A stretch of 64,000 nucleotides of DNA, from IMG/VR virus record IMGVR_UViG_3300044504_000033, positions 10,103-74,102 of that record; one strand, written 5' to 3'. This DNA is from a virus (lineage: Duplodnaviria > Heunggongvirae > Uroviricota > Caudoviricetes). The translations under genes and the position numbers were made by a program. The notes under the pieces are model-generated. The model was given only the letters and a program-made list of their open reading frames with translations, was not told the origin of the DNA and made no database searches. This document shows, in pieces, positions 2,471 through 63,348 of the stretch (positions are counted from its first letter, which is position 1; the number at the start of each line of letters is the position of its first letter).

Positions 2471-4414
2471 TCAGTGGATCTCCAACCAATTATTTCCAAT
2501 TAAGCCTGAGCCATCCATAATCTCAATGCCGTAAAGTTTTGGGCCATCTCTGAATGCTTCCTTACCTATCTGTGCAGCACGCTCGGCGAACTCTTCGGGG
2601 ACGAAGAAGTCAATCTCATCATGGTAAAATATACACGGTTGGTAAGGAATTCCCTCCTTCTCTAAATTTTCCATGGTAAGCATAAGTGCAGTTGAGCAAG
2701 TGATCTTTTCAAGGGCTTGAAGGAGATACACAAGTAGCTTATGGAACGAGTCCACATAGATAGGCGTCCCTACAATAGAAGGTATGTACCCATCTCCAAA
2801 CTTAGATGTGCTACCATAGATATTCTCAAGTTTATCAATTAAACCTTTAAACCCAGGTACAGCTTTAAGAAACCCATTTCTGAATTTATTTCCACGTTTA
2901 GGGTCTTGAATACCCATGATATAACTCCACAATTTAGCACCCGCGGCCCCAAAGAGAAATGCGTAGAGTACACGTTTGGCAACACCACGAGGTACGGTAT
3001 GATCAAAGCCCATAGACTTCAGCACTTCAGTCATCTTATCCGCGTTGTATTGGTGGATATCCCCATTCAAGAGTATCTCAATAAAGTCTGCATCCCCAAG
3101 GTAATGTGCCAACCCTCTTGCTTGGTTTCCTGAAGAGTCGCAGCCTATAAGTTTAGTCCCTGGAGGGCATCCAAATAAAGCTCTCATCTCAGAACCCCAT
3201 GTACTATCCACAGAGGGAACATTCACGATAATCTGATGAGTTGCACGCATCGAAGGTGTGCCGATGAGTATACAATCGCCATGCAGTCGTCCATTTTCAT
3301 CTGTGTTTGCGATCCATGTCCTAAGATTATTGAAACGAGACTGGGTAGTTAGATAGTCTTTATACACCTTACCATCACCCCCGAGGAACTCTAAGCTATC
3401 TTCGGTGATTTTCGGTGAAGCACGCTCTTTCTTAAAAGTCTTCTCATTAAACTTATAGTTCCATTCGGTCGGCTCCCACCCATTACGAAACAAAAAGACC
3501 TTAACATCAGTCACAGATGATAACTTCAGAGGTTCGAAAGTCACACGACAATACTCACCTAGTATCATCCTATGATTCTTATCATCTCGCGCAAGTTCAT
3601 CATCATCAAGACCATTGTATGGTGCTATGTCAAACCAATTACAGGTATGCACATCGTAGGTACCATTTCTTAGCCATTTAGGTTTCTTAACAGCTACTAC
3701 ACCCTTTATTTTATCAGTTGGTACGACTTTGATGCCAAGCTTTCCATCAAGAAGCTCATGGGCAGCCGCAATTTCGACGGCCATCCTACCTGATAACTCT
3801 GTGGCGGCATCAACGTTAAAAGGCCAGCCATAGAGTCTACTCTCGGTTGCCCAACGAGCCGCGAAGTGTTCGGCTCTAAGGTAGTATTTGAGTTCTGGAT
3901 TCTTCTCAAGGCGTTTTAAGTATTCTTGAAGTAGGAATAAGTATTGTTTTTTAGTTATATCTTTGTCTCTACGACAGTAGTCAATCATCTCAGGATGGTA
4001 CTGCTTGAACTCAGCTCCTTTAGGTGATAGCGTAGTTATCAACCCAAGCTCAATAGCGCGTGCTCTCCAATCTATCTTTTCAAATCCGAAGAATTCACCC
4101 CAGACTTTAAGACTGTGTCCTTTATTTCCGAAACGTTTATAGTTTAGAACTTGAGACATCAACATCGTATCGTGACTACCACAAGTTTTTGGAAATTTGT
4201 AATTGAACATTTTAAGAAGAGCATAGTTATCGTAGCCCAGGATATTCTGGCCTATGACTAGCGAAGCCTCGTCAAATAATTTCATCCAAGAGAGGTCACC
4301 TTCGAGGAATACAGACTCAACCCCTGTGTCAATATTCTCGACAACCATCACCCACATACGCGTACAATTTAATAAAAGATCATCTCCTTCAATGTCGTAT
4401 ACATATCTACTCAA
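2471..4414 (-). CDS. DNA polymerase family A with N-terminal 3'-5' exonuclease domain
   Basis: Exo I YDIEGD, Exo II GQNILGYDNYAL, Exo III SHDTMLMSQVL. Pol motif A IGCDSSGNQARGLAHY, motif B RGVAKRVLYAFLFGAAGAKL, motif C IFYHDEIDFFV. Confidence 0.85.
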   Translation of the reverse strand: MSRYVYDIEGDDLLLNCTRMWVMVVENIDTGVESVFLEGDLSWMKLFDEASLVIGQNILGYDNYALLKMFNYKFPKTCGSHDTMLMSQVLNYKRFGNKGHSLKVWGEFFGFEKIDWRARAIELGLITTLSPKGAEFKQYHPEMIDYCRRDKDITKKQYLFLLQEYLKRLEKNPELKYYLRAEHFAARWATESRLYGWPFNVDAATELSGRMAVEIAAAHELLDGKLGIKVVPTDKIKGVVAVKKPKWLRNGTYDVHTCNWFDIAPYNGLDDDELARDDKNHRMILGEYCRVTFEPLKLSSVTDVKVFLFRNGWEPTEWNYKFNEKTFKKERASPKITEDSLEFLGGDGKVYKDYLTTQSRFNNLRTWIANTDENGRLHGDCILIGTPSMRATHQIIVNVPSVDSTWGSEMRALFGCPPGTKLIGCDSSGNQARGLAHYLGDADFIEILLNGDIHQYNADKMTEVLKSMGFDHTVPRGVAKRVLYAFLFGAAGAKLWSYIMGIQDPKRGNKFRNGFLKAVPGFKGLIDKLENIYGSTSKFGDGYIPSIVGTPIYVDSFHKLLVYLLQALEKITCSTALMLTMENLEKEGIPYQPCIFYHDEIDFFVPEEFAERAAQIGKEAFRDGPKLYGIEIMDGSGLIGNNWLEIH

Positions 4415-5011: not shown

Positions 5012-5665
5012 TTAAAAATTATCGTTTGGATTGAGACCTACAGGCACTACTGCAGGTACTACAGGTGCTGCTACAGGTGCTGCTACAGGTGCTGCTACAG
5101 GTGCTGCTACAGGTGCTGCTACTACAGGAATCTCTCCCATTGTCTGCTCGCCAGCAGGAGTATACGCGCCATCAGCTACTCCACTCTCTTCTGTCGGTTG
5201 AACCACGGTAGTCGTAGTCTCACCGAAGTCACTCTCGCGGGGTTTTGGTACATACAGAAGATGTGTGGTGACCTGGATGCCCATTGGAATTGTACTAATA
5301 CCCTTTGTGCCGTCTGGCTTTGTGTGCTCATACTGCCAGATACGTACATTGGCGATTGAGCCATGGCCGATCGTGTTTGGATCGATGGGATTCATACTAC
5401 CGTCAATGACCTCAACAAACGATGCAGGTGTGCCATCTGCTTTGGTAATATGTCGCTGAAGATTACACCGCCAGTAGGGTTTAGAGCCGTCATCAGGGAG
5501 TACTGCGCTGACCCTCATATTAAGCGCTTCCCATTCTTTCTTCTTTGCTGGGTCGGTAGTTCTGATCTGAACTTCCCATGTTGGATTCTTCTTATTAAAC
5601 TTGGCGTTGGGGTGCAATGGATCACACTTGACGTACCAAACTTCGCAGGCGTTTAAGATAGGCAT
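5012..5665 (-). CDS. single-stranded DNA-binding protein-like (phage gp2.5 / DUF2815-type) with (PVAA)n linker and C-terminal Phe
   Basis: 217 aa; N-terminal OB-fold-like region. A low-complexity AAPVAAPVAAPV linker is followed by acidic/aromatic terminus ...NPNDNF, as in T7 gp2.5-type SSBs. Sits in the replication module. Confidence 0.4.
   Translation of the reverse strand: MPILNACEVWYVKCDPLHPNAKFNKKNPTWEVQIRTTDPAKKKEWEALNMRVSAVLPDDGSKPYWRCNLQRHITKADGTPASFVEVIDGSMNPIDPNTIGHGSIANVRIWQYEHTKPDGTKGISTIPMGIQVTTHLLYVPKPRESDFGETTTTVVQPTEESGVADGAYTPAGEQTMGEIPVVAAPVAAPVAAPVAAPVAAPVVPAVVPVGLNPNDNF
5049..5122. repeat. 12-bp tandem repeat (caggtgctgcta)x~6 inside SSB-like gene, encodes (PVAA)n
   Basis: Direct reading of sequence 5041-5125. 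Confidence 0.85.
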
Positions 5666-5707: not shown

Positions 5708-5726
5708 GGGTTAATTTAACGGGGTC
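5708..5726. promoter_or_regulatory. class I conserved motif site 1 (GGGTTAATTTAACGGGGTC), 45 nt upstream of SSB-like gene
   Basis: One of five copies of the TTAATTTAACGGGGTC core at operon boundaries. Confidence 0.5.
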
Positions 5727-5738: not shown

Positions 5739-6512
5739 TTAACCGATACGTTCGGTGATATTTTGTAATTGTGCTGCCAGCTCTTCTTTACGCTTAATTG
5801 CATGGTCCTTTGCTTCTGTAGCTTTCTCTCTATCGAGGAGGGTTTCCAACTGGTCTCCATTGATAATATGGATTCCAATTGTTCCTTCTATCTGTTCCAC
5901 ACGCGTGATTCCGTGCGAACCAACATCGAGCTGCATGCGTCCGGTAAAGGCTGTGCTGAGGAGCAGCAGGGTTGCTTCACTATATGCAAACACGATTACA
6001 TTGGTATTATGTTGATTGACGACGATATATCTCATTTTAGTGTGTTCCTCTATGGTTTCTGGATAGCTAAATGCGTGAATCTCGTGTGTCTGCATCATAT
6101 GTTTAACATTGCCACTAATACAGCTGTCTCTATACTTAGGTAGTATATCTAGTAGTGGCATGATAAACTTCATATATTCATTCTTCACTGTTTCAGGGGG
6201 ACAGTCATATGATTGTATGTACTTAATCCTTTTAAGGAATTGTGTGATGGCAGACGGTGTAGGGTTTGACACATGATACTTAAACCGAGTAAGATTGGCG
6301 ACATACCGGGGGAAAATCTCTTTGTTGGTGTAAGAACGCGTTGTAAGTAATTCGTGTAGATAACTAATAGCGGTAGGTGTCAACCAAGTGTTATCATGCA
6401 TCAGAACGTTCCTCGAAGTTTGCAGTCCATTCTTCTTCTGTAATTCCTGTAATGAGAAACTCACGCTCAGAGCTCGAAAGGTCTGGAAAAGCATCTTGAG
6501 CAAGCATTCCAT
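5739..6512 (-). CDS. hypothetical protein (start probably at internal Met near 6401)
   Basis: Long minus-strand ORF; its 5' end overlaps ORF 6394-6600, suggesting a later start. Confidence 0.4.
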   Translation of the reverse strand: MECLLKMLFQTFRALSVSFSLQELQKKNGLQTSRNVLMHDNTWLTPTAISYLHELLTTRSYTNKEIFPRYVANLTRFKYHVSNPTPSAITQFLKRIKYIQSYDCPPETVKNEYMKFIMPLLDILPKYRDSCISGNVKHMMQTHEIHAFSYPETIEEHTKMRYIVVNQHNTNVIVFAYSEATLLLLSTAFTGRMQLDVGSHGITRVEQIEGTIGIHIINGDQLETLLDREKATEAKDHAIKRKEELAAQLQNITERIG

Positions 6513-6600
6513 TTCTCCAGGCGAGTAGTTGCGCCTCTGTTACAGCGAGCTCTTGTTGATGCGTGATACCGGTTAGTGCTGATCTTCTTTCAATTAACAT
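6394..6600 (-). CDS. hypothetical small protein (68 aa)
   Basis: ORF in the operon orientation, acidic C-terminus. Confidence 0.3.
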   Translation of the reverse strand: MLIERRSALTGITHQQELAVTEAQLLAWRNGMLAQDAFPDLSSSEREFLITGITEEEWTANFEERSDA

Positions 6601-7030
6601 CTGAACCTCCGAGAATTAACTTATGGGTCAACCATGGCGGAGGCTCTTTTGATGCTTCAGCTTCCAATGCGGCATATATAGAACTCCAACCATCGGAGGC
6701 GTTGCAATCTGGTATGAAGTACGTGATTCCAAAATCATCATTCACAAGATGTAGCACCGAATAGAGATCCTCTATTTTATCTACATTTTCCCATTGGTTA
6801 AACACATCCTCCCAAAAATCAAAGTGGTGCAGCGTACCTCTGTAAAATTGCACTGAAGCGTACGGAAAGTCCCAAGGCTCTATATACACTGCGTAGCCAA
6901 TGTCATCTATAGGTTCATTTGCGTACTCTTGGATCGGTTCGAGTACATTACACAGAAAGGCACTAACTACACTACGGTGAGCTTCATTTTTAATTCTTTC
7001 AAGATCTTTGTGATTCTTTACAATTATCAT
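6590..7030 (-). CDS. hypothetical protein (146 aa)
   Basis: ORF immediately downstream of the RNAP gene with 10-nt spacing. Confidence 0.4.
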   Translation of the reverse strand: MIIVKNHKDLERIKNEAHRSVVSAFLCNVLEPIQEYANEPIDDIGYAVYIEPWDFPYASVQFYRGTLHHFDFWEDVFNQWENVDKIEDLYSVLHLVNDDFGITYFIPDCNASDGWSSIYAALEAEASKEPPPWLTHKLILGGSDVN

Positions 7031-7039
7031 AATAACCTC

Positions 7040-9304
7040 TTATACAAAACAGAATTCAGATTCAAGGATTAAGCTTAAGTCAAGTGTGCCGATAGTTATT
7101 TCACTGATGTCTCCTTTTATATCTTTCATAATTGATGTTAATGGATCTGCCTCATACAATTCTACGAATGTTTCTCGTATAAGTTTGAACAAATCAGGCA
7201 TATCAGCTAACAGACAGCCGAATGAGTCATGTACAGTCGTAATAGCATAGTCGGCCTTATCAACAGTTATTGTCAAGTGAGCGGCGTCTAGACTATGTAT
7301 CACATTTGGTGAGGCTCCTTGTGCTTGTTTACGTTTTGATGGAACTACATCCTCGATGAAGCATACAAAGAGTTGTAGCGTGTTTGTATAATAACCTGTA
7401 CTTAAACGTGGTCCTGCCGGAGGCCCGTATTGCGTCCATATCTTCTTCGTCTTTCCTTGGACATAGTTCTGTACGACAGGGAAGTTTGTTATAGGTACAG
7501 TCCATGATAAGAATTCGCCAGCCATTTCAGCTTGTCGGCCAGCTTCCTCAAAAACCGCCAATAGCTGCATAGGTCGTTTGAGAGAACGTTTGCAAACATT
7601 ATACACCTCACGACCTAGATAAGCGCCCCAACGATGCTCCATAAATGATAGCTGGTCTACGCCATGTTTCTTTGCATCAAGTATCTGCTGCTCGCCCATT
7701 CCATATGCTGTCGAACCATACGAGATTGTCATAACATTTCGTTTCACAATCTTTCTACGGTACTTTGCATCTGTTATTCGTAACCAGAATAGGGGAGCCG
7801 CCTTTACCATAAGGTCTTCATGTGCTTGCTTAAACTTTCTTATCTCCTCCACTAAGGCTTTTCTGGTGTCACTACGTGGCTCTGACTCATTGATGTCCTT
7901 CTTGAACTCAATTAAGTTATCAATTACAGCTTCACAATCTTGTATCTCCTTTTTTGTGTATGCTGAGGCCACTTCTGATAGATAATCCCAGACATGGTCT
8001 GCCACATACTTGTAGAGGTCGCCAGGTAAATCCAGGGGTACGAGATTGACATAAGGAGCTGTTATTTCATCACGTGTTAACGCGGTGAGGTGCTGACTAC
8101 CATTGGTACTACCATCAATATACACTTCAAGGTGTGACTCGAACCCGTATTCATCATACTCAGGATTCTCTTCGGGTTTGAATAGGCGCATCATTTGTTG
8201 CCAGTTTCTGAACTTTCTCAGCTCTAGACAAGCAGCAAGGAATTGCCAGGGTTTGTCGGCTTTCATCCAACCTTGGTTGACCTTCGGTGACTCCGCGTAA
8301 GAAATAAAAATTTCCTCATTGTCCAGAACCCACTCATGTCTATCAAGTAAGGGTATCTTATCCGTCTTAGCATTATCTTCGCGTCCGGCATCACCGGCCC
8401 AGTTCGAGGCTATCGAGATAGTCAACCAAAAGAAACCTGCGCTGCCGATACGCTTCTTATCATTGCGTAATAATAAGCCCTTGGCTAAGTCAGAGCCTTG
8501 CTCATGGAGATAGGCTGAAGCACAATATTTACGTCCTCTGAAGTCATAATAGTAGAGATGATAAAAGGTTTTTCCTTTAAATCTTCCTGCGATGTCACTG
8601 ATGGCATGCGCTTCACGTAGTTTTGTTGCTCTCGCTTCAGAGTTTTGATTCTCCCATATTTCTGCAAATGCATCAGTTTTGTTACGCAAGGCCCATAATT
8701 GGATATCGTACAGGAGACTATTAATTTGCCATCCAACATGTTGTGCTTTATTTAAACAGCTGAACAGCATAGGATGCGAAGTTAAATTGACACTCTCGAT
8801 GACATCTTTGTTACCGGTCTTTATGATAGGGGTCCCGGTAATGTGTCTCGCAGTTGTCCAGTCGGCGTAAGGTGTTTCTGACGGAAGTTTCTCGATTTTA
8901 TCAGTGTTTATCTTAGCCCACAATTTGCAGATGGCATCATCATTGGTTACCTGGATGATATACGCACCATGTCCATTCGAACTCTTACCTAAAGTTACCT
9001 GAACCATACCTAACTCCTCAAATGTATAGAGGATAAAGGCACCTGTCTTTGCGGCTAATGATGAGTCTCTCTTAAGTTTAAATTTATTGCGAAGGTTGTG
9101 CCCTATTGCAGAAATAACTTCTGTTAGGTAAATTGTGTTCTTATTTGCACCGCGCTTAGCACGAGTGTAGAGATAGATGACCGCTATTGCATTATCGATG
9201 TAATCATCTACGTCTAAGTTTTTTAAGTAGCGCAAGGGACTTTGAGGTGCGAGTTCAGCCTGGCATCTGCTAGTTAATGATTTGATTAATAAGTGTTTCA
9301 TCAC
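7040..9304 (-). CDS. T7-like single-subunit DNA-dependent RNA polymerase (754 aa)
   Basis: YDFRGRKY...GLLLRNDKKRIGSAGFFWL (T7 DWRGRVY...GLLTLAKGKPIGKEGYYWL). Motif A YIDGSTNGSQHLTALTRD, motif B RKIVKRNVMTISYGSTAYG, motif C HDSFGCLLADMPDLF. Confidence 0.9.
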   Translation of the reverse strand: MMKHLLIKSLTSRCQAELAPQSPLRYLKNLDVDDYIDNAIAVIYLYTRAKRGANKNTIYLTEVISAIGHNLRNKFKLKRDSSLAAKTGAFILYTFEELGMVQVTLGKSSNGHGAYIIQVTNDDAICKLWAKINTDKIEKLPSETPYADWTTARHITGTPIIKTGNKDVIESVNLTSHPMLFSCLNKAQHVGWQINSLLYDIQLWALRNKTDAFAEIWENQNSEARATKLREAHAISDIAGRFKGKTFYHLYYYDFRGRKYCASAYLHEQGSDLAKGLLLRNDKKRIGSAGFFWLTISIASNWAGDAGREDNAKTDKIPLLDRHEWVLDNEEIFISYAESPKVNQGWMKADKPWQFLAACLELRKFRNWQQMMRLFKPEENPEYDEYGFESHLEVYIDGSTNGSQHLTALTRDEITAPYVNLVPLDLPGDLYKYVADHVWDYLSEVASAYTKKEIQDCEAVIDNLIEFKKDINESEPRSDTRKALVEEIRKFKQAHEDLMVKAAPLFWLRITDAKYRRKIVKRNVMTISYGSTAYGMGEQQILDAKKHGVDQLSFMEHRWGAYLGREVYNVCKRSLKRPMQLLAVFEEAGRQAEMAGEFLSWTVPITNFPVVQNYVQGKTKKIWTQYGPPAGPRLSTGYYTNTLQLFVCFIEDVVPSKRKQAQGASPNVIHSLDAAHLTITVDKADYAITTVHDSFGCLLADMPDLFKLIRETFVELYEADPLTSIMKDIKGDISEITIGTLDLSLILESEFCFV

Positions 9305-9476: not shown

Positions 9477-9525
9477 AAAAAAAAAAAAAATGGGACGGAG
9501 AAAGAAACCACTCCCGAAGGAGTGG
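9477..9525 (-). terminator. putative intrinsic terminator (minus strand): hairpin CCACTCC-TTCG-GGAGTGG, U/C-rich tract, then U14
   Basis: 7-bp stem at 9508-9525; A14 at 9477-9490 on plus strand. Lies between the regulatory/lysis block and the RNAP gene. Confidence 0.45.
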
Positions 9526-9538: not shown

Positions 9539-9823
9539 CTACATAAACTTGGATAGTTTACGAAGCGATTCAAATGAAAATCGATGGACGTTCTTCATTT
9601 TAAACAAGTCTTGTCGAAATTTCAAGTGTACTTTGTTACAGCGTTCTATTTGTGATATTGTGATTTCTAGATCATTTGTATCTTCTTCAAGTTTTGCGAG
9701 AAGGTCGAATGCATCCGCAGATCGTGAAATCTCTCGCGAAAACTCTGCGATAGCACCTAAGAAATGCTGAAGAAAGCCACCATCAGCAGAACTTTTCTTT
9801 TGACCACCGGTGGCTTTTCCCAT
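9539..9823 (-). CDS. hypothetical protein (94 aa)
   Basis: ORF with 2-nt spacing to the upstream gene. Confidence 0.4.
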   Translation of the reverse strand: MGKATGGQKKSSADGGFLQHFLGAIAEFSREISRSADAFDLLAKLEEDTNDLEITISQIERCNKVHLKFRQDLFKMKNVHRFSFESLRKLSKFM

Positions 9824-11166: not shown

Positions 11167-11200
11167 TGTTATCATATAAGATACCGTATTTCCCGCAGTT
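11167..11200. promoter_or_regulatory. operator-like element copy 1: GTTATCATATAAGATACCGTATTTCCCGCAGTTT containing near-perfect 14-bp palindrome TATCATATAAGATA
   Basis: Direct repeat of this 34-mer found again at 11644-11677; palindrome at 11170-11183. Confidence 0.45.
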
Positions 11201-11643
11201 TAGTAGTAGCTACCTGCGATACTCATAGTGCCTACGGTCAGTTCCGTTATGAGGAATACACCAGATACTGTTACGGTGAGGTTCTCTTTCGGCTTTGTAA
11301 TCGTGTCTACGAATACGGTAACGTTCTTGTTGACTTGTGTAACGCTTCGTTGCTCCTGCACTATAAGGTTCTTCACCGCAATCATTGCTGTGTGTCGGTT
11401 AGTAAAATACAGGTCATAGAGAAGACGGTTGTAGGTGCTTGTTGTACCGCTACCCGTCTTAGTGTGTGTCGTAGTGGTTCTGGTGATCACAAAAATACTC
11501 ATTGGATACCCCTTGTTTTAGTAGAACGGGAGAACAGACTTCGGTCCATACGTGTGTTGTTTAGAGGCTATAGTAACCGTTTGCTTTACAATACTTACAG
11601 TCACTACAATACTTGATTTATCTGGCATTGAGTTATCCTCTAG

Positions 11644-11677
11644 TGTTATCATATAAGATACCGTAGTTTCCGCAATT
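11644..11677. promoter_or_regulatory. operator-like element copy 2 (GTTATCATATAAGATACCGTAGTTTCCGCAATTT)
   Basis: 30/34 identity to copy 1; palindrome at 11647-11660. Confidence 0.45.
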
Positions 11678-11710
11678 TTAAACCCCCACATTTTACTGTG
11701 AGGGTCTTGG

Positions 11711-12573: not shown

Positions 12574-12685
12574 GCTGTTTTCCCTTATTGATTATATATT
12601 TAAATTATATACATTATAACTTATGCCCTGATAGACCCTCTTAGATACTCCTCTTAGTACCATTTTAGTACCTCTATATATTAAA

Positions 12686-12720
12686 GGGAGGGACGGTCAG
12701 TAGATTAATTTAACGGGGTC
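12686..12720. promoter_or_regulatory. class I motif site 2 with upstream GGGAGGGACGGTC box (AGGGAGGGACGGTCAGTAGATTAATTTAACGGGGTC)
   Basis: Same composite element as at 48016-48052; upstream of the holin/endolysin operon. Confidence 0.5.
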
Positions 12721-12903: not shown

Positions 12904-13830
12904 TCAGGCCACTGTAGTGTACTCATCAAGATCATGCATCAACCTTCTTGCCTCAAGAGTTGAATGGTAACTACTTGTAACTTCATCACCACCATTTATT
13001 CTCTTCAGTGCATACATATTGATAGTTCCATCTGGCTCAATCCGAATTTCCGAATTTGGGCGCCTGCTGTGGTTCACGTACCTGCCAAAGATTGTGCGAG
13101 TTCCATGCTGACGCGCAGGACCAAGATACTGACCCACTCCATAATCAATCTTGGAGAACACCCCAAGACCTTCGATTGGTGACGATTTCAGCTCAAATCT
13201 GTTCTTCAAATGAGAGGGTAATTCTCGTAATTTATTTGAAGAATTCATATGTTGAAGAGCTTGTGACTCATCAAGATTTATGCTGTCAAGAAATGTATTG
13301 TAGTCATTTCTATCATCTTCGACTGTGTACTCGATTTCAACCATGTGTGCGTCCTTGAACTTAAGGTATTCTTCGTAGGATACTGAAGTGAGGTAATCAC
13401 GAACATTACTCTCATCGACACCCTTACCTATAGCGTGGGCATTGATCCAGAGGGTATCCTTTACGATGTAAGCGGCACGCTTAATACCGGCTTTAGCGAT
13501 GACTGGATTATAACCTGCGAGATAAATGAGACCATCAAACTCGGTCCACATATATATCTCACCCGAAATCATGATACTTACATGATCAAAGTTGTGAAGC
13601 TCGCCTATTGCAAAGGTGCCTCCAGGAATTAATGTTTCGCGAACGTAGACATCTTCTCCGAAGTAATGTTTAACGGGGGCATCCACAGGAGGAAGCATGA
13701 GAATGTGTTTTTCAAGTTCAGTGATACGTTCAATCATTGATAGAGATTTGTCAGCTAAAATTTGGTTTATCTTTGGTATCGTAATCAAGGTGTTATTTTT
13801 AAGGGCTGAAAGACGTTTACTTGACATCAA
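12904..13830 (-). CDS. SET-domain protein (putative protein lysine methyltransferase) with N-terminal beta-barrel (cupin-like) region
   Basis: C-terminal GLGVFS...RYVNHSRRPN...GDEVTSSY reproduces the SET GxG / NHSCxPN / ELxxDY motif series. Confidence 0.6.
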   Translation of the reverse strand: MMSSKRLSALKNNTLITIPKINQILADKSLSMIERITELEKHILMLPPVDAPVKHYFGEDVYVRETLIPGGTFAIGELHNFDHVSIMISGEIYMWTEFDGLIYLAGYNPVIAKAGIKRAAYIVKDTLWINAHAIGKGVDESNVRDYLTSVSYEEYLKFKDAHMVEIEYTVEDDRNDYNTFLDSINLDESQALQHMNSSNKLRELPSHLKNRFELKSSPIEGLGVFSKIDYGVGQYLGPARQHGTRTIFGRYVNHSRRPNSEIRIEPDGTINMYALKRINGGDEVTSSYHSTLEARRLMHDLDEYTTVA

Positions 13831-32414: not shown

Positions 32415-32507
32415 TACAATCTATCCTTCTTGAGCACAGCTCATTATGTTTGAGATACAATCTCGTGTAAAACAGGTGAGGCGTGTAATCAGGAGAAAAC
32501 ACACCTT

Positions 32508-32526
32508 GGGTTAATTTAACGGGGTC
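32508..32526. promoter_or_regulatory. class I motif site 3 (GGGTTAATTTAACGGGGTC) between MuF-RNAP gene and scaffold gene
   Basis: ~95 nt upstream of the scaffold start codon. Confidence 0.5.
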
Positions 32527-32529: not shown

Positions 32530-35500
32530 CTAACCCACTCCGTACCATCCAAAATCATGTTTGAAACCTGTGGGAATTTCCTTAAGGATATCATCTCTCA
32601 TGAGAATGTCTGTATCTGTGAGTAGTTTTCCGTCAATACGTGAGCGGCCCACAACAGGAATCAGCCCTGTCTCAATCGCTTCATTTAAGTATCTGTCATA
32701 GATTTCACGAGGAAGACCTCTGGCAAGCATCTCATCAAGAGTCATCTTAATCACATTCTTCTCAAGGGCATTTGCATAAGACTGTCTCAAGGCTTGTCTT
32801 GCTTGCAGCATATCGGCAGCATTTGCGAAGAATGCATCATGGATAGTTGACGTGGGTATACCATTCTTAGAACCCCATAAGTGAAATTTCTTAACAAGGA
32901 CAGCATCATTAGAGTGGTTACCATTTACGGCAAATGCTGTACGTGCTTTAGTGGCATCCGCGATATCATTTATCTTCCCACTCTTATTAATAATAGCCTC
33001 CCAAGGAGATATTTCAGTCTTTTGAGGAACTTGGAGAATATTAGTTATCCATTTACCATCTCTATCTTTATAGACAAGTCTCGCTTCAAAGGTCTGTGTG
33101 AAGTTTTGCTCAATAATCTTTCCATCAAAGTTGACCCAGGGGACATTTGTCCAACTCTTAGGTAGCTTATTGGCAATCATGAACTCGATCTCGTTAAGGG
33201 TCTTCAACTGAGCAATCTCGACTTTGAGATATGTAGCACCTGTCCTTCTTGCCTCTGGGGATTTAACACCAAAGAGGATTTCAGATAGAGTGCTTTTCTT
33301 ATCCCACGCCGCAAACCGTCTGAGTATCTTCTCAGAGACAGGTTCACCGGCCTTAATACCTAGAATCTCACTGAGCGTATCAGAGAGTACATAACCCTTT
33401 CGTGAACCACCGAGTAGCTTAATCTTCGCAATAGATTTCCAATCAAATGCACTATTTGACGGTTTTGCGTTGATGAGAAACTCTTCCGCAAGTCGTCCGA
33501 AGAATTTTGTAAAGTGCTTAAGGATAGGCACTTGCTCAGCCAGGTGTTCACTCATAAGCTTAGCAATAGCTTTAAAGTCCTCTGGAGTGACCACCTTGTC
33601 GTAGTTTGCAGACATCTTTGTTACGAGGTCTTTAGTCTTTGAATCAAGGAAATAAAGTTGTTCCAAGATATCATCACCTGGATCTAGACCTTTATTGAAG
33701 ATATCCTTAACATTTTCTCTAAGGGCTCTCAGCTCAAGTGTAGTGTCAGGGTCAAACCTCTCATATCTTGCGATACGTGCAGATATCTCATTCAACACAG
33801 TATCTCTATCTGAAGCTCTAACAACAAGAGTGGCTGTGTCTTTATCAAGAATCTTCGCAAGTTTGCCCTCCACATTAAGGATACCTGTACGTTCACCCGC
33901 GCCATAGAAAGTCACCATATTCTGTGCTTTAGCGGCCTTTCTTAAGTCTTTTTCAGTGAGTCCCAGCTTCTCATTAAGCTTCTTGAAACGAGGGTCATTG
34001 TAGGTTGCAGCAGCAATCTCGTCGTACAGACGTTTCTTTTGTGTGGTGGGAATTACATTACTAAGTTCTGCGAGTTGCTTATTACGTGTTGTCAGAGCAA
34101 TAATTTGGGCACCTGACGACGACGCATCCTGTTCAAGCGCGAGTGCCGTCTTATACTTATTCATCAATGTTAAGTTTGTGTAATCCCCTCTCAGATGAGC
34201 GTCAATCTTGGCAGATTCGAGAGCGAACCTGTAGAACTTACCAAGCTCCTCCCCCTCAATCATCGATGCTACAGGACTGTCGAGAATAGCTCGGATATCC
34301 CCAGGCTTACCTCTCAACATATGATTACCAATCTTCACCATCTCAGAGCGCCACTTGTCAGCTATTTTTTGTCGACCCGTGAAACTGAGAGAATTGTATG
34401 GCCCTTCGAAGGTATCATTCAGACCACCAAGGAAAGCACCTATCTGATCTTGAAGATTAAGGTAACCAGTCTCACCCAGTACCTTGCTGGCTTCCGTACT
34501 GAGAAATGGTCTGAATGTTTCACCTGATTGAGGGCTTATTAGACCCCTGTCATAGATACGTGCACGGTGATCGATAAATGGGTGATTACTGAACGTACTA
34601 TTCTTTGTACGTAACCATTCCATAGCCTTAAAGCGCTCATAAGAATCCCCACGAGATGTTATGTAATGACGGTACTCGTTTAGATTATTATAGTACTTAG
34701 CCTTTCCTTTATCATCCTGGAAGTCCAATAATTTCATCGTGAAATCGTAAAAGTCATCATCAACTCTGTATTTGGTCTTTGAAGCCCAGTTAAGTGCATT
34801 CACCATATCAGCATCAATAAAACCTTCGGGAAAATCACTGAAACTTGAAGTCGAGGTGATTGGAATACGAGTATCTTCGTAGCCAAGGAGACCACGGTCA
34901 ATGAAGTATGTCTTGTATCCTTTACGAAACACGAGACGATTCTCATCACTTACCACACTAACACGCAACCCTAATTCAACCTTACGAGTCAACTGGGAGT
35001 ATTTCTGAATCCTCGGGTCGGTTATCCTCAGGTTATATGAGAAGGTATCGTAGTAAGGGCCAAATAGAGCACCACTCATGCGACTTTTCATTCGACGCTT
35101 TTGAACACCATAGGTCTCAAGATTAAAGAACTGATTATTTGAGTTAAGAATATCAGAACCTAGAGTAAACCATTGGCGTCGTGTTCCATTCATGCTGGAC
35201 ATATTGTATAAATCACGTCCTAACATTGCAGCTAATTGGTCGAAGTCAGGAGAATCAGCGAGACTGAGTCTATGCGCAAATCGTAAGTAGAATTGTTGGA
35301 GGTCTTGGTCAGATAGCCTGAGTCTGAGCTTGACTGGGAGATGCTTGTCAAAAGTATCACGCAACTCACGCGCTATCTTCGGAGCTACACTATCTTCCCA
35401 TTTATTCTTCTCATAGATATTCTTGATGAAGTTGTCATGTAAGTCTTGTAATTGAACGGGACCAAGAACAGGGTCTATGTAGTTATCTTGTTTGAGTTTT

Positions 35501-37143
35501 TTGAGTAAGTCAGAGTCACGCCTCAGAGTCGTCTCAATGAAGTCGGAAGTGTTCATCACATCATACTTAATTTGGGCCTGTGACACTGCCTTAAAGTTAA
35601 TCCAAGGAGCTGGGTTCTCACGATATCTTGTAAAAAGTATCCGCAAATTATCTGCAACCACAGCTCTCTCGTTCACACTCATCTTACCCTCAAGACTGGT
35701 CATGAATGTCTTGATGAACTCTTTATCAGCAGTCTTAAGGACAGCACTCTCTTCAGTTAGTCTGAGGTTATTTGCAAGAGCACCTGGAGATGGTTGAAAG
35801 AGACGAGCATCATCATACTTCCCCGTCACGGGGTTGAATACCATTTGGTCTTCCCGAGGCAGTGTCTGGACAACGCGTCGTTTAGCTTGTCGCTTAGTCC
35901 CTATCAGGTTGCCCCGATAGTTAGTGAGAGATAGTGTACCGTCAAGCTCTCGCGTCTGAAGTATGTAATAGTCTTTCAGCGTCTGTCTCATCTTAGCGTC
36001 AGTAAAGAAGTCTTCAGGGGACGCAGCACCAAGTTGCATTGCATTTAGCTTATCCTTAGCTACAGCAAACTTATGAGTATTTCCTGGAGTCGTGTAAGAA
36101 GAGTCAGATAACTGGCGTAGTTCTCGAATACCTATCGAGTTACCCTCTGCATTGGTAAATTTAGAAATTGGCATCATACCACCTCTAAATAACTCAAGCT
36201 TCTGATAGTCTCCAAGATGTCTTAATTGAGTTGGCTTGTCTTGGCGCATCAGCCAATCGTTATAGGTCTCACGGAGTGGTGTCTGACCGTCATAAAATGC
36301 CTTCTGCTTATCGCTCAAACGACTCAGGTTACGACGTCTAACATGAGCAACACCTTCAAGATTTGATAAGTCATTCCATGCTTTAACGACAGGAGTAGTT
36401 GTCGAGCGGCAACCCCAGTGTGCCGGTGGCAGATGCTCGGTGTCCCCGATGGCGTAGATATGGGCGTCGCGGTGGATACAGATGTCCGTCGTGTAGGAGT
36501 CCATGATGGACACGTATTGCCAGCCGAGGAGAGCGGGTTCGTTGGCTGCGTAGACCTCATGGTCAGCTTGGGCATATATGCTTGTGATTGCAGTAGTTGT
36601 GAGCGTTCTAGCTCGGTTTCGGGTGATCCTATGGATCTTACCCTTACGAACATCCAAAGCGATTTGTTCTAAGCTGTCACCCTTAGCGACACCCTTTCTT
36701 ATTACAGTCTCTATAAGTTTCCTCTCGTTAACAGCGAGACCTGCCCAGCCTTGTGACAAAGTTCTATCCTTGTATAAGGGCTTGACGAGAACTAAATCTT
36801 CAGCTACACGTCGTGAGGGTCTCTGTGTCTTCCAGATACGCCCTATCGAATTCTCTATAGTCTGGTACGTGTATGACACTTGGTCTGCGACGAAACCTAG
36901 AAGAGAAGTCTTGCTTACATTATAAGCTTCCGTGATAGAGTTTTGTATCTCAACATCAATGGCGTCTCTCAGCAGTCTGAAGCCTTTATCAGACTTACTT
37001 GCATTGCGAATGAGGGCGTCGACACGAAGCCGATGGCCGTCAAAAACAACTTCTACCTTACCGTGTAGTCTACGTTCGTAGAGCTTTATCATCCCTGCTC
37101 TGTCGACTGCTCGGTCATAAATTTGTGTGTTACTGTTAATCAT
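32530..37143 (-). CDS. fusion protein: N-terminal MuF / SPP1 gp7-like minor head (portal-associated) domain + C-terminal T7-like single-subunit RNA polymerase domain (putative virion RNAP)
   Basis: MuF signature LLGWQYVSIMDSYTTDICIHRDAHIYAIGD...LPPAHWGCRSTTTPV near residue 200-250. RNAP motif A ALALEQDASSSGAQIIALTTRN, motif B RKAAKAQNMVTFYGAGERTG, motif C STIHDAFFANAADMLQARQALR in the last 500 aa. Gene lies between portal and scaffold as SPP1 gp7 does. Confidence 0.75.
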   Translation of the reverse strand: MINSNTQIYDRAVDRAGMIKLYERRLHGKVEVVFDGHRLRVDALIRNASKSDKGFRLLRDAIDVEIQNSITEAYNVSKTSLLGFVADQVSYTYQTIENSIGRIWKTQRPSRRVAEDLVLVKPLYKDRTLSQGWAGLAVNERKLIETVIRKGVAKGDSLEQIALDVRKGKIHRITRNRARTLTTTAITSIYAQADHEVYAANEPALLGWQYVSIMDSYTTDICIHRDAHIYAIGDTEHLPPAHWGCRSTTTPVVKAWNDLSNLEGVAHVRRRNLSRLSDKQKAFYDGQTPLRETYNDWLMRQDKPTQLRHLGDYQKLELFRGGMMPISKFTNAEGNSIGIRELRQLSDSSYTTPGNTHKFAVAKDKLNAMQLGAASPEDFFTDAKMRQTLKDYYILQTRELDGTLSLTNYRGNLIGTKRQAKRRVVQTLPREDQMVFNPVTGKYDDARLFQPSPGALANNLRLTEESAVLKTADKEFIKTFMTSLEGKMSVNERAVVADNLRILFTRYRENPAPWINFKAVSQAQIKYDVMNTSDFIETTLRRDSDLLKKLKQDNYIDPVLGPVQLQDLHDNFIKNIYEKNKWEDSVAPKIARELRDTFDKHLPVKLRLRLSDQDLQQFYLRFAHRLSLADSPDFDQLAAMLGRDLYNMSSMNGTRRQWFTLGSDILNSNNQFFNLETYGVQKRRMKSRMSGALFGPYYDTFSYNLRITDPRIQKYSQLTRKVELGLRVSVVSDENRLVFRKGYKTYFIDRGLLGYEDTRIPITSTSSFSDFPEGFIDADMVNALNWASKTKYRVDDDFYDFTMKLLDFQDDKGKAKYYNNLNEYRHYITSRGDSYERFKAMEWLRTKNSTFSNHPFIDHRARIYDRGLISPQSGETFRPFLSTEASKVLGETGYLNLQDQIGAFLGGLNDTFEGPYNSLSFTGRQKIADKWRSEMVKIGNHMLRGKPGDIRAILDSPVASMIEGEELGKFYRFALESAKIDAHLRGDYTNLTLMNKYKTALALEQDASSSGAQIIALTTRNKQLAELSNVIPTTQKKRLYDEIAAATYNDPRFKKLNEKLGLTEKDLRKAAKAQNMVTFYGAGERTGILNVEGKLAKILDKDTATLVVRASDRDTVLNEISARIARYERFDPDTTLELRALRENVKDIFNKGLDPGDDILEQLYFLDSKTKDLVTKMSANYDKVVTPEDFKAIAKLMSEHLAEQVPILKHFTKFFGRLAEEFLINAKPSNSAFDWKSIAKIKLLGGSRKGYVLSDTLSEILGIKAGEPVSEKILRRFAAWDKKSTLSEILFGVKSPEARRTGATYLKVEIAQLKTLNEIEFMIANKLPKSWTNVPWVNFDGKIIEQNFTQTFEARLVYKDRDGKWITNILQVPQKTEISPWEAIINKSGKINDIADATKARTAFAVNGNHSNDAVLVKKFHLWGSKNGIPTSTIHDAFFANAADMLQARQALRQSYANALEKNVIKMTLDEMLARGLPREIYDRYLNEAIETGLIPVVGRSRIDGKLLTDTDILMRDDILKEIPTGFKHDFGWYGVG

Positions 37144-47610: not shown

Positions 47611-48015
47611 ATATGGAACCTCGGCTGGTCTGTATGTTGTGCTAAATGCAAATAAGAAAAATCAGAAACTAAATTTCCCTCCGGGTACCTTGAAGTACTC
47701 GCGTAGTCCACGAAGTATTAAAAGTGTCTTCCCACTTAGCTCGAATGCCCCTCCGAGTTAACTTTCCACGGTTCAGCTTCATGGTGAATGTTTCATGATT
47801 TCTCGGCATGATGATCTTGAGAGGGCTTATTGGTTAATCTAGGTTATAATGATTATAATTATTGACTGATTAACCTCTTGAGAGACCCTCTGGGTACCTC
47901 TGAGGTACCCTCTATAGGTTTATCTCTTATACTTAATCACTATAACTGATACCATCTCAGTACCATCTTAGTACCCTTAAAGGTACCCCCTTAGGTTACC
48001 CCTTAGGTTATATTT
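47611..48015. promoter_or_regulatory. repeat-rich noncoding region (~400 bp): inverted repeat GGTTAATC/GATTAACC flanking AT-rich core, CTTGAGAG direct repeats, GGGTACC-N5-GGTACCC palindrome, TAGTACC/TAGGTTA repeats
   Basis: No ORF; repeats read directly; candidate packaging (pac/cos) or origin region adjacent to the terminase genes. Confidence 0.4.
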
Positions 48016-48052
48016 AAGGGAGGGACGGTCTCTAGGTTAATTTAACGGGGTC
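48016..48052. promoter_or_regulatory. class I motif site 4 with upstream GGGAGGGACGGTC box
   Basis: AAGGGAGGGACGGTCTCTAGGTTAATTTAACGGGGTC; upstream of the terminase region. Confidence 0.5.
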
Positions 48053-49942: not shown

Positions 49943-50194
49943 TTATACAGCCTCAAGCATATCCTGTGTCATGTAGCTGATTTGCGGCAGTTTGAAATTA
50001 CTTTGGTATCTAATACCGACATTAAACCATTCAACTTCAAATTCATAAAAGCCATCAGCGTAAAATAAAAACTCAACTCTTACGTCAATATCATCATCTA
50101 TGTTAAATTGTGTTCTTACCATGTTTTCAACTGTTTTATGCTTCATACTCAATCCTCCAAAAATGTATAACAAATAAATCAACCAGACCGTCAT
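49943..50194 (-). CDS. hypothetical protein (likely starts at MKHKTV, RBS GGAGGATTGAGT)
   Basis: ORF with strong SD 7 nt before the internal Met. Confidence 0.4.
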   Translation of the reverse strand: MTVWLIYLLYIFGGLSMKHKTVENMVRTQFNIDDDIDVRVEFLFYADGFYEFEVEWFNVGIRYQSNFKLPQISYMTQDMLEAV

Positions 50195-50237
50195 ACAGTC
50201 CGGCTCGTTCCTACCAGCTCATGCGGCTGCTTATTGG

Positions 50238-50251
50238 TAGGTTATGTGCGG
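50238..50251. promoter_or_regulatory. class II motif copy (TAGGTTATGTGCGG)
   Basis: Member of the CC(G/T)GTTAG(C/A)TCTA(G/C)GTTAT(G/A)YG family at gene junctions. Confidence 0.35.
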
Positions 50252-50472
50252 GTCAGCACCTTCTCATCTCTAAACCATAGATAGCCTAGCGCCTCTAGCA
50301 TCAAATAGGCTTCCTCTTGTTCTGCCGTTGTCCAGTTTGGAACACATGGGAAATGTGTTTTATTAAGCAGCTCAATTAATCTTTCTTTATTCGGTGGTTC
50401 CGGTAATTTCTGTCGCATACCTAAGCCCTCGCACCTAACACGGCGTTCAATTTGACCGCGATACTGCGGCAT
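50242..50472 (-). CDS. hypothetical protein, paralog pair A1 (RVRCE N-terminus)
   Basis: Shares upstream TTATTAAAAGGGCCGCTG leader and QIERRVRCE / FELRVRCE N-terminal segment with ORF 50512-50760. Confidence 0.4.
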   Translation of the reverse strand: MPQYRGQIERRVRCEGLGMRQKLPEPPNKERLIELLNKTHFPCVPNWTTAEQEEAYLMLEALGYLWFRDEKVLTRT

Positions 50473-50511
50473 TTTAACTAAGGCTGTACAGCGGCCCTTT
50501 TAATAAGGTCG

Positions 50512-50760: not shown

Positions 50761-50783
50761 CAGCGGCCCTTTTAATAAATAAG

Positions 50784-51050: not shown

Positions 51051-51074
51051 CTGTTAATTCCCCATGGCTCATCG

Positions 51075-51102
51075 CCGGTTAGATCTAGGTTATGTGGCAC
51101 GG
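51075..51102. promoter_or_regulatory. class II motif copy (CCGGTTAGATCTAGGTTATGTGGCACGG)
   Basis: Between the stop of 51090-51443 and the start of 50784-51050. Confidence 0.4.
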
Positions 51103-51443: not shown

Positions 51444-51446
51444 TTT

Positions 51447-51468: not shown

Positions 51469-51469
51469 T

Positions 51470-63328: not shown

Positions 63329-63348
63329 TAGGTTAATTCAACGGGGTT
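63329..63348. promoter_or_regulatory. class I motif site 5 (variant AGGTTAATTCAACGGGGTT)
   Basis: ~105 nt upstream of gene 62510-63226. Confidence 0.45.

Follow-up and report, generated by a model that had tools for sequence, protein, structure and literature searches.

Pairing of a free and a MuF-fused T7-type RNA polymerase in a long-tailed phage points to an undescribed two-polymerase transcription cascade

Two T7-type single-subunit RNA polymerases (RNAPs), one encoded as a free protein and the other fused to the phage head protein MuF, were identified in a 64,000-nucleotide stretch of a Caudoviricetes genome (IMG/VR record IMGVR_UViG_3300044504_000033, positions 10,103 to 74,102; here called the window), and their pairing points to an undescribed two-polymerase transcription cascade. 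MuF is an ordinary protein of the capsid interior that in other settings carries toxins and effectors to be injected. The best overall explanation, to which a probability of roughly 50% was given, is that the free polymerase is a functional, promoter-specific, non-virion member of such a cascade. The features bearing on this reading are listed in Table 1.

Table 1. Features of the window that bear on the proposed transcription programme
Feature	Position	Strand	Evidence or context
Class I motif (2 mismatches)	63331..63348	-	Before the 63- to 48-kb small-gene block; syntenic site in EBPR siphovirus 1
Class I motif	48035..48052	-	Before the packaging, portal, and MuF-RNAP block
Fusion of MuF (a head protein resembling SPP1 gp7) with a divergent T7-like RNA polymerase	32530..37143	-	1,537 aa; Pfam PF04233 and PF00940; PHROG 241 and 414
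Class I motif	32509..32526	-	3 nt past the MuF-RNAP stop, before the scaffold and major capsid genes
Class I motif (1 mismatch), GACCCCGTTAAATTAATC	12703..12720	-	Motif scan
Terminator-like hairpin, CCCTCACA...TGTGGGGG plus TTT	11680..11704	-	Directly upstream of class II copy A; sequence
Class II promoter-like element, copy A, AAAATTGCGGAAACTACGGTATCTTATATGATA	11647..11679	-	Motif comparison with relatives
Class II promoter-like element, copy B, AAACTGCGGGAAATACGGTATCTTATATGATA	11170..11201	-	Motif comparison with relatives
GC-rich hairpin CCACTCC-TTCG-GGAGTGG (TTCG loop)	9508..9525	-	Stem of intrinsic-type terminator; terminator scan and sequence
T-rich tail, TTTCTTTCTC	9477..9507	-	Short spacer, then T14 tract at 9490-9477; sequence
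Free (non-fused) T7-like single-subunit RNA polymerase	7040..9301	-	753 aa from ATG 9301; frame open to GTG 9304
Two ORFs after the polymerase gene (6590-7030 and 5739-6512)	5739..7030	-	ORF list
Class I motif	5709..5726	-	1.3 kb past the polymerase stop, 44 nt 5' of the first replication-module gene (SSB-like)

By its sequence and predicted structure, the free polymerase ORF encodes an intact T7-like single-subunit RNA polymerase with the T7 RNAP fold. Translation from the GTG would give 754 aa; the ATG one codon later, from which the publicly called gene and the aligned family members start, is probably the start codon. Pfam RNA_pol (PF00940) matched aa 284 to 734 with 221.4 bits against a cut-off of 22, and PHROG 414 matched with an E value of 1.7e-111; PHROG 2166, "N4-like RNA polymerase," also matched (E = 6e-31). 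The four T7 RNAP motifs that a first-pass annotation of this DNA had pointed out were all present, DFRGRKY at aa 253, YIDGSTNGSQH at aa 394, VKRNVMTISYGS at aa 519, and VHDSFG at aa 690, and alignment paired them with the T7 catalytic residues D421/R425, D537, K631/Y639, and H811/D812, respectively. The corresponding residues, namely, D253 (to R257, the T/DxxGR motif), D396, K520, Y528, and H691/D692, were invariant across 26 homologues at 59 to 70% identity. That annotation had also described the product as ~130 aa shorter than T7 gp1 and the gene as lying downstream of a terminator and upstream of replication genes, and these statements were borne out: BLASTP paired aa 140 to 752 with T7 aa 270 to 882 at 27% identity, so the shortfall is confined to the N-terminal domain; the hairpin and T14 tract were seen where the terminator had been placed; and genes for a gp2.5-like SSB (5012-5665), DNA polymerase A (2471-4414), and a 5'-3' exonuclease (895-1719) lie downstream.

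The AF2 model of the free polymerase had a pLDDT of 88, and Foldseek matched it to 1cez, 1aro, and 3e2e with E values of ~1e-25 to 1e-27 and TM scores of 0.67 to 0.69; in the model, a beta-hairpin (strands 618-625 and 642-649) occupied the place of the specificity loop, T7 739-770. The gene is one uninterrupted ORF, and the product measured 714 to 799 aa in all 120 homologues listed. Promoter-specific, factor-independent transcription by this enzyme is predicted, with the conserved 18-nt class I motif described below as indirect support. The two ORFs that follow the gene are poorly conserved (6590-7030 was found at 7 and 5739-6512 at 0 of 81 related loci) and are probably cotranscribed with it, because no class I or class II motif intervenes.

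The MuF part of the fusion matched PF04233 with 49.2 bits (cut-off, 29.6) and PHROG 241 with an E value of 4.9e-52, and the fusion gene, starting at 37143, is the next gene after the portal gene (37626-39206). Its polymerase motif residues, D858, D1006, K1072, Y1080, and H1435/D1436, were invariant across 28 sequences; the T/DxxGR motif reads DHRARIY, with G replaced by A. An AF2 model of aa 360 to 1537 had a moderate pLDDT of 70.5. A PDB sequence search with the fusion gave no match, and the fold search alone succeeded, returning mitochondrial and T7 RNAPs at E values of 1e-14 to 1e-16; none of its top 50 matches was described as the N4 virion RNAP. Two distinct single-subunit polymerases had been claimed at first pass, and this distinction stood: both proteins matched PF00940, and they are barely related and are not recent paralogues, BLASTP of one against the other having given only an E value of 0.017. 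Catalytic death of either enzyme, raised in the same annotation as a possible objection, was checked by alignment, and the motif A and motif C aspartates are kept in both. The fusion is a candidate virion-delivered polymerase, whose packaging and injection would be analogous to those of SPP1 gp7. It is still annotated merely as a head morphogenesis or minor capsid protein, and in the literature searched, coverage of which was incomplete, no MuF-fused polymerase and no pair of single-subunit polymerases outside N4 was found.

The hairpin and T14 tract directly follow the stop of ORF 9539-9823 and lie ~190 nt 5' of the free polymerase gene. A hairpin plus T-run at most 450 nt upstream of the polymerase start was found in 37 of 51 relatives versus 4 of 255 control windows; its distance from the start was mostly 170 to 280 nt, and T-runs of 6 to 31 occurred at the corresponding site. 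This insulation of the free polymerase gene by a terminator is a conserved arrangement. A small hydrophobic ORF often lies between the terminator and the polymerase gene in relatives. In an alignment of 22 upstream regions made to look for a promoter, the interval from the terminator to the polymerase gene showed no conservation beyond the hairpin and T-run themselves. As this interval yielded no promoter, expression of the free polymerase would need either read-through or an unrecognised element.

Two motif classes, as the first-pass annotation had indicated, were found independently, and they constitute two conserved promoter-like classes with very different copy numbers and placements. Class I is an 18-nt promoter-like motif, A-N-CCCGTTAAATTAACCC, located at five module starts; these five sites in the 64 kb, all on the coding strand, compare with 0.03 expected from shuffles. 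The conserved block is sharply bounded, and positions beyond the search pattern are conserved too. The free polymerase operon is the sole gene block without a class I site. In relatives, class I usually occurs downstream of the free polymerase gene and never within ~2.3 kb upstream of it, and in about 70 of 80 IMG/VR relatives a site lies just downstream of the end of the MuF-RNAP gene. The segment GTTAAATTAAC inside class I is a palindrome.

Class II, in contrast to class I, has two copies only in the 64 kb, just upstream of the polymerase region, and in relatives there are one or two copies, nearly all of them 150 to 2,850 nt upstream of the polymerase gene. The family profile, built from 74 unique instances, is a near-contiguous block of ~30 nt, a pattern that looks unlike a two-hexamer host promoter. 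A sequence ending in GGGGTTTT stands immediately before the first class II copy in relatives, and in the window the hairpin in front of copy A would shield class II from transcription arriving from class I sites farther upstream. Further promoter classes could lie in the ~10 kb of the 74-kb contig beyond the window, a portion for which a Logan search returned only one 10.5-kb contig. A motif in the 50- to 54-kb small-gene region, CAATAASCRGCYG, was dropped as not significant, its three matches having been equalled in 1 of 100 shuffles.

IMG/VR contains 527 loci with the free polymerase and 430 with the fusion; the two genes occur together on at least 10 contigs (the overlap of the two best-80 lists), and 16 records are apparently common to the protein match lists of both polymerases. 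Megablast, run with 25 kb on a set of 50,697 phage records, found no match. The closest cultured relatives are DSS3_VP1 and DSS3_PM1 (MN602266 and MN602267; Naomviridae), siphoviruses of Ruegeria pomeroyi with dU-substituted DNA. DSS3_VP1 is without nucleotide-level similarity to the window, and 21 window ORFs match it at 25 to 56% aa identity, largely in the same order. It also has both enzymes, a 732-aa free polymerase (34% identity) and a 1,463-aa MuF-polymerase fusion (31%), the gene for the latter lying directly after the portal gene, as in the window. A hairpin followed by TTA and seven T residues is located about 30 nt before its polymerase start. The many-copy motif of DSS3_VP1 (13 copies) has a CGTTAAA core in common with class I and otherwise differs from it in sequence, and the class I query gave no significant result against this genome; a gap in the motif distribution from 29.4 to 45.9 kb encloses the polymerase gene at 42.4 to 44.6 kb. 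A two-copy 32-nt element (35.8 and 36.3 kb) precedes the polymerase gene, and the window class II element had a borderline score of 29 against it, reached by 1 of 60 shuffles; the class II consensus and copy B were not significant. The published descriptions of DSS3_VP1 and DSS3_PM1 discuss neither polymerase, the fusion being annotated just as "minor head protein-like," and Rihtman 2021 (PMC8323127) is without mention of an RNA polymerase.

The closest database match to the fusion, at 60% identity, was in EBPR siphovirus 1 (JF412302), a partial metagenomic genome that has structural genes in common with the window and carries three syntenic class I-like sites (CCGTTNNNTTAACCC). Unlike in the window, an HNH endonuclease gene splits the fusion gene of this phage within motif B; the record stops in the tail genes, short of the free polymerase region. 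Pelagibacter phage Kolga, which encodes a free polymerase and whose MuF protein lacks a polymerase domain, was tried as a control and was uninformative, because it contained no repeated motif and its CGTTAAA occurrences were in coding sequence.

In the proposed cascade, the MuF-fused polymerase would be built into the capsid beside the portal and would leave with the DNA, by analogy with SPP1 gp7. It would initiate at the class II elements (11.68 and 11.20 kb), from which transcripts would cover a few fast-evolving small genes, including one for an HTH protein, and would then pass the terminator, by read-through or re-initiation, into the free polymerase operon (9301 to 5739). The free polymerase would next read class I and thereby the small genes, the packaging/portal/MuF-RNAP genes, the capsid and tail genes, and the replication blocks, while the terminator and the lack of a class I site would exclude the polymerase gene from a positive-feedback loop of its own, as in T7. 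The assignment of each enzyme to a motif class was inferred purely from position. Extension of this scheme to a global group of ~70- to 80-kb long-tailed phages, including the dU-DNA roseophages, as a fully host-independent cascade running from MuF enzyme and class II to free enzyme and class I, with the hairpin and long T (or dU) tract as its gate, is put forward more tentatively than the role of the free polymerase itself.

The host RNA polymerase appears less likely than the injected MuF-polymerase to turn on the free polymerase. If the host enzyme acted first, class II would represent strong host-type early promoters or adjacent operators, from which the free polymerase and the early small genes would be expressed as in T7, and the MuF-polymerase would pull the genome in or prime replication; transcription pulls the genome into the cell in T7 and N4. 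Class II indeed contains a -10-like TATGAT with TTGCGG 16 nt upstream, the DSS3_VP1 element holds a perfect TATAAT, the gene for the HTH protein lies within the class II block, and bacterial RNAP classically stops at a hairpin with a T-run behind it. However, ~30 near-contiguous class II positions are conserved even though the polymerases of the relatives are just 56 to 70% identical, the conserved upstream part of class II is GCGGAAA and not TTG, and a sigma-70 scan called no class II site. Such an order would also leave the invariant catalytic centre of a capsid-delivered polymerase without an obvious role in transcription, and it was considered rather unlikely.

An exchange of the two pairings, with the MuF-polymerase (injected and newly made) reading class I and the free polymerase reading either just the pair of class II sites or some class not seen here, was judged improbable. 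It would confine the free enzyme to just ~2 kb of small genes that lie 5' of the gene encoding it and oblige a few-copy delivered enzyme to drive capsid-level expression, and the absence of class I from the free polymerase operon only is what is expected of a class I reader (cf. T7 gene 1). On the other side, no computed link ties either recognition loop to either motif, and the fusion gene itself lies inside a class I-driven block. There is very little to be said for a state of redundancy or decay, in which one polymerase would be an inert relic and the motifs would be sites of regulator binding or RNA processing, for example, and not promoters: the A-for-G change in DHRARIY of the fusion and the palindrome in class I, a frequent trait of regulator sites, would fit it, but in neither family do the aspartates of motifs A and C or the Lys/Tyr of motif B vary, the two genes have been retained across hundreds of contigs as well as in DSS3_VP1 (~31 to 34% identity), and all motif instances were found on the coding strand, 44 to 130 nt upstream of a gene start.

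The order favoured here, a virion polymerase followed by a second phage polymerase, is known in N4, in the phiKZ/AR9 jumbo phages, and in P23-45, with different hardware each time. In N4 (Schitoviridae), the virion RNAP gp50 is followed by RNAPII (gp15 and gp16) and then by the host RNAP. The first-pass annotation had set the strategy apart from those of both T7 and N4, which stood for the parts but not for the logic; the latter is N4-like, because N4 already uses two T7-family enzymes, the virion RNAP and then RNAPII. Common to both phages would be a virion-delivered T7-family polymerase, presumed as such in the window, and then a compact second T7-family enzyme from the early region; the N4 RNAPII subunits showed weak similarity to the free polymerase (E = 1e-4 and 6e-8). 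N4 virion RNAP promoters are DNA hairpins. Unlike these, neither motif class of the window folds, and N4-style hairpin promoters were rejected because class I and class II, as single-stranded DNA, folded no better than shuffles (z = 0.15 to 0.68 and -0.17). N4 RNAPII is split into chains of 269 and 404 aa, whereas the enzyme of the window is one 753-aa chain. Compactness, highlighted at first pass, is not a special trait of this chain, since N4 RNAPII totals 673 aa and the DSS3_VP1 RNAP has 732 aa. The candidate virion enzyme, a 1,537-aa MuF fusion, is unlike the giant N4 virion RNAP, which has ~3,500 aa and its own injection and encapsidation domains (PMC5512222).

The free polymerase and T7 gene 1 have fold and catalytic residues in common, and the N-terminal domain of the former is shorter by ~130 aa. 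T7 has one phage polymerase, the gene for which is transcribed by the host RNAP; unlike in T7, a terminator precedes the polymerase gene in the window, and a second, capsid-associated polymerase is encoded. The second polymerase domain in a MuF fusion and the presence of long-tail genes likewise differ from the T7-type (Autographiviridae) programme, with its lone phage polymerase and short-tailed virion. The layout is T7-like in that no cognate phage promoter lies upstream of the polymerase gene and the first lies just downstream (T7 phi1.1A at 5848, NC_001604; 5726 in the window). In the long-tailed Thermus phage P23-45, a tape-measure-fused virion RNAP is reported to transcribe the gene for a non-virion RNAP (PMC10770324 / bioRxiv 10.1101/2022.12.01.518664). 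P23-45 is similar in combining a virion polymerase fused to a structural protein with a second, non-virion polymerase, and it differs in that its enzymes are of the two-barrel (multisubunit) type and in that the carrier is the tape measure and not MuF.

If true, the cascade would make MuF a delivery vehicle and would have T7-type enzymes run both transcription stages from candidate promoters that are short and sharply delimited, amounting to a fourth architecture of host-independent phage transcription. It would also offer a possible explanation of gene expression from uracil-containing templates in the dU-DNA roseophages, and synthetic biology would gain two new polymerase/promoter pairs as candidates for orthogonal use. 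Metagenomes contain the group in abundance (>400 IMG/VR loci per enzyme), and with both DSS3_VP1 and its host, Ruegeria pomeroyi, available as cultures, the model can be tested directly.

Among the other contents of the window, Rfam gave no match and a tRNA scan gave no tRNA. A YfbR-like HD protein is encoded at 1695-2240 (PF12917), and its Pfam family is shared with the DSS3_VP1 dTMP phosphatase; a homologue of the dCTP deaminase was absent from the 64 kb. Siphovirus-type tail genes are present, and a 2,251-aa ORF had its best match to a tape-measure gene.

The window reads as a tailed-phage genome, and almost all of its long ORFs lie on the minus strand. The free polymerase, a non-fused T7-like single-subunit RNA polymerase, is encoded by ORF 7040-9304 (minus strand), which translates from a GTG start into 754 aa; the start one codon later, ATG 9301 (753 aa, the numbering used here), is both the public call for the identical protein P0001, from a JGI contig of 74,102 bp, and the consensus start among 26 homologues. 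The protein matched Pfam RNA_pol PF00940 (221 bits; cut-off, 22) and PHROG 414 (E 1.7e-111), and by BLASTP its residues 140-752 aligned with T7 RNAP from residue 270 to the C-terminus (27% identity, E 3e-48), so that the shortfall of ~130 residues falls wholly in the N-terminal domain. All four T7 RNAP motifs listed in the first-pass annotation were found, and the tabulated T7-equivalent residues were invariant in the 26-sequence alignment. An AlphaFold model built from that alignment (mean pLDDT 88) matched T7 and mitochondrial RNAP structures (E ~1e-27, TM up to 0.69), with a beta-hairpin, residues 618-649, at the position aligned to the T7 specificity loop. Catalytic death, which the annotation had considered, is ruled out as far as sequence and model can indicate, with the motif residues intact and invariant (n=26) and a T7 fold modelled. 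The enzyme is indeed ~130 aa shorter than that of T7, but compactness is a family trait (DSS3_VP1, 732 aa; N4 RNAPII, 673 aa), and on its own the free polymerase is a new member of an already known family.

The second enzyme, a MuF (SPP1 gp7-like) head protein fused to a divergent T7-like polymerase, is encoded by ORF 32530-37143 (minus strand; 1,537 aa), which starts 483 nt beyond the portal gene (37626-39206). The fusion carries a MuF/SPP1-gp7 domain (PF04233, 49 bits; PHROG 241, E 4.9e-52), and its C-terminal half gave RNA_pol matches. The motifs DHRARIY (858), EQDASSSGAQI (D1006), AKAQNMVTFYGAG (K1072/Y1080), and IHDAFF (H1435/D1436), identified by eye and by regular expression, were all invariant in a 28-sequence alignment. 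A model of residues 360-1537, of moderate quality (pLDDT 70.5), retrieved both T7 RNAP and mitochondrial RNAP (E 1e-14 to 1e-16), and no N4 virion RNAP entry was among its top 50 fold matches. The two polymerases were almost unalignable (best BLASTP E 0.017); they are, from sequence comparison, evidently not recent duplicates, and with motif residues invariant in each, the claim of two distinct single-subunit polymerases held. In the fusion gene of the partial metagenomic genome EBPR siphovirus 1 (locus L002, 28929-29849), an HNH endonuclease gene splits motif B exactly (...KAAKAQNMV | ... | VVKAADRD...), which looks like a homing intron at the most conserved site.

Features of the window and its relatives
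Feature	Position	Strand	Remarks
Class I sites	63348, 48052, 32526, 12720, 5726	minus	44-130 nt upstream of the module's first gene
Class II, exactly two copies in the window	11679-11647, 11201-11170	minus	a small gene begins ~40-60 nt after each copy
Hairpin CCACTCC-TTCG-GGAGTGG	9525-9508	minus	directly 3' of the stop of ORF 9539-9823
Polymerase region, 1: class I	12720	minus	
Polymerase region, 2: one or two genes		minus	
Polymerase region, 3: hairpin		minus	
Polymerase region, 4: class II		minus	two copies
Polymerase region, 5: small genes		minus	poorly conserved, HTH protein among them
Polymerase region, 6: hairpin + T14		minus	
Polymerase region, 7: free polymerase		minus	plus two poorly conserved ORFs
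Polymerase region, 8: class I	5726	minus	
Polymerase region, 9: replication genes		minus	gp2.5-like SSB, DNA polymerase, HD phosphohydrolase, exonuclease
Hairpin GAGA-TTGTA-TCTC	~32450-32462	minus	window
Hairpins GAG-TTGTA-CTC, AAAGA-TTGTA-TCTTT			relatives (L007-L054), about 80-100 nt past class I site
Hairpin GTAAG-TTGTA-CTTAC	~25690-25704		DSS3_VP1 (L001)
Free polymerase residues	D253-R257		T7 D421-R425
Free polymerase residue	D396		T7 D537
Free polymerase residues	K520 / Y528		T7 K631 / Y639
Free polymerase residues	H691 / D692		T7 H811 / D812
Free polymerase C-terminus	EFCFV		T7 DFAFA

The terminator proposed before the free polymerase gene proved real and conserved. After its hairpin come TTTCTTTCTC, a short spacer, and 14 consecutive T (9490-9477, minus strand). 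A hairpin of at most -8 kcal/mol with a T-run after it was kept in 37 of 51 sequences (the window and 50 related loci with full upstream sequence), mostly 170-280 nt upstream of the polymerase start, versus 4/255 control windows in the same scan, and the cultured roseophage DSS3_VP1 has one of the same grammar ~30 nt before the polymerase start codon. The T tract is longer by far than a terminator needs, reaching 31 nt in relatives (loci L089, L095, L097, and L122 were noted for it), and the spacer of ~15 nt is pyrimidine-rich, usually ending in TTA; the tract may belong to a promoter, act as a slippage site, or be a structural element of DNA that possibly contains dU.

Two candidate promoter classes were found. 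Counts of k-mers in the intergenic gaps of the window yielded class I, GACCCCGTTAAATTAACC, with five sites (≤2 mismatches), all on the coding strand, versus 0.03 expected. The conserved block in 117 unique instances was A-N-CCCGTTAAATTAACCC, with sharp edges; conservation extended to two positions outside the search pattern, A at -2 and the terminal C. Class I lay just 3' of the fusion gene in ~70/80 related loci, mostly within a few nucleotides of the gene end, and the fusion proteins of these loci were just 65-74% identical. EBPR siphovirus 1 has three CCGTTNNNTTAACCC sites syntenic with class I. A family-wide k-mer census gave class II, AAA-(T/C)GCGGAAAA-NN-GGTATCTTATATGA(T/A)A, with about 30 near-contiguous positions in 74 unique instances. 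Relatives had one or two class II copies, located almost always 0.15-2.85 kb ahead of the polymerase gene; in the window, copy A has a hairpin and T-stretch immediately upstream. In a folding test, neither class gave a DNA hairpin.

Of all blocks in the window, only the polymerase operon lacks a class I site in front. In relatives, class I usually lay downstream of the free polymerase gene and was never seen within ~2.3 kb on its upstream side. The same arrangement recurs independently in DSS3_VP1, where the many-copy motif ATAGG(G/T)(T/G)(G/A)CGTTAAAG... (13 copies, coding strand only) is absent from 29.4-45.9 kb, a gap that contains the polymerase gene (42.4-44.6 kb), and a 32-nt element is present in two perfect copies (35.8 and 36.3 kb). 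Since the similarity of this element to class II is borderline, it is taken as an analogy of layout, not as proven homology.

This layout parallels that of T7, whose gene 1 is preceded by no T7 promoter, the first being located just behind it; the analogy argues for the free enzyme as the reader of class I and for another agent as the source of the first polymerase mRNA. The obvious candidate for that agent is the fusion, because MuF/gp7 proteins sit inside the capsid and are thought to exit with the DNA, and effector domains attached to MuF are known to be injected (PMC5512222). The fusion would enter with the DNA and transcribe from class II, and the terminator would either be read through by it or act as an attenuator, while also blocking class I transcription from entering the polymerase gene. 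The chief alternative has host RNAP reading class II, in which TATGAT occurs, and the fusion serving genome entry or priming. Transcription of class II by the fusion would, for its part, suit the site number, as an injected low-copy enzyme fits a promoter class with just two sites per genome. The two-polymerase interpretation of the first-pass annotation is largely right, although unproven.

The contrast drawn there with N4 was somewhat overstated: the logic, a virion RNAP followed by RNAPII, is that of N4, and the free enzyme is faintly similar to both N4 RNAPII subunits, but the parts differ, since the giant virion RNAP, split RNAPII, and hairpin promoters of N4 were each tested for in this phage and found absent. 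The nearest design parallel is P23-45, whose virion RNAP, joined to a structural protein, transcribes the gene for a second RNAP (PMC10770324); both are two-barrel enzymes, unlike the T7-type ones here. No paper was found on a MuF-fused T7-type polymerase or on a programme of two single-subunit RNAPs outside N4; the description of DSS3_VP1 never mentions RNA polymerase (PMC8323127), and Iyer et al. restrict virion RNAP modules to N4-like phages (PMC5512222). With two polymerases and two motifs, the conserved architecture is a novel form of a known strategy and is directly testable in a cultured system.

No nucleotide-level relative was found among 50,697 phage records. At the protein level, the best cultured relatives for both enzymes were the Naomviridae roseophages DSS3_VP1 and DSS3_PM1 (34% identity, free; 31%, fusion), and the fusion of EBPR siphovirus 1 is 60% identical. 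DSS3_VP1 encodes a 732-aa 'RNA polymerase' and, directly 3' of the portal gene, a 1,463-aa 'minor head protein-like protein'; 21 window ORFs have counterparts there, in largely the same order. At least 120 metagenomic homologues were listed per enzyme (roughly 59-70% identity), with conserved lengths of about 740-800 aa for the free enzyme and about 1,490-1,580 aa for the fusion, some variants of which bear insertions or are truncated. IMG/VR held 527 free-enzyme and 430 fusion loci; at least 10 contigs were common to the best 80 of each, with the genes 26-33 kb apart, and 16 identical contig sizes were common to the protein match lists of both enzymes. The two enzymes are stably paired across a large, uncultured group of phages of ~70-80 kb.

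Several further features were observed, all on the minus strand. The 217-aa protein 5012-5665, the first gene 3' of class I site 5726, was kept in 73/81 related loci and DSS3_VP1; it has a PVAA repeat and a C-terminal ...NPNDNF tail and resembles T7 gp2.5-type single-strand-binding proteins. The YfbR-like HD phosphohydrolase 1695-2240 (PF12917; 31.5% identity to VP1 gp50) belongs to the family of the DSS3_VP1 dTMP phosphatase, which helps replace dT by dU; no dCTP deaminase homologue was found within the 64-kb window. The replication module ends with a SegE-type GIY-YIG homing endonuclease (184-657; PF19835, E 4.9e-18), and a 308-aa protein (12904-13830) has a SET methyltransferase domain (PF00856, E 1.9e-8), unusual in phage. 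Two class I sites have the same GACCGTCCCTCCCTT(T)AATATA box downstream, and beyond it arrays of GGTAC-N-AAG(A/G)GG-like repeats and a strongly AT-rich segment (12574-12700 and 47810-48030); these regions may act as origins of replication or as arrays bound by a regulator. Gene 62510-63226, the first past class I site 63348 and a homologue of EBPR siphovirus 1 gp9 (39% identity), has a repetitive 3' stretch (62518-62609; copies spaced 12 + 21 nt), and region 50000-54650 contains clustered small paralogues whose upstream sequences are duplicated, including repeats of 45 nt (51704/52548) and 46 nt (54059/54356). The TTGTA-loop hairpins, with an invariant loop and covarying stems, immediately precede the scaffold gene's ribosome-binding site, often in tandem; they had no Rfam match and are probably an RNA element controlling capsid-operon expression.
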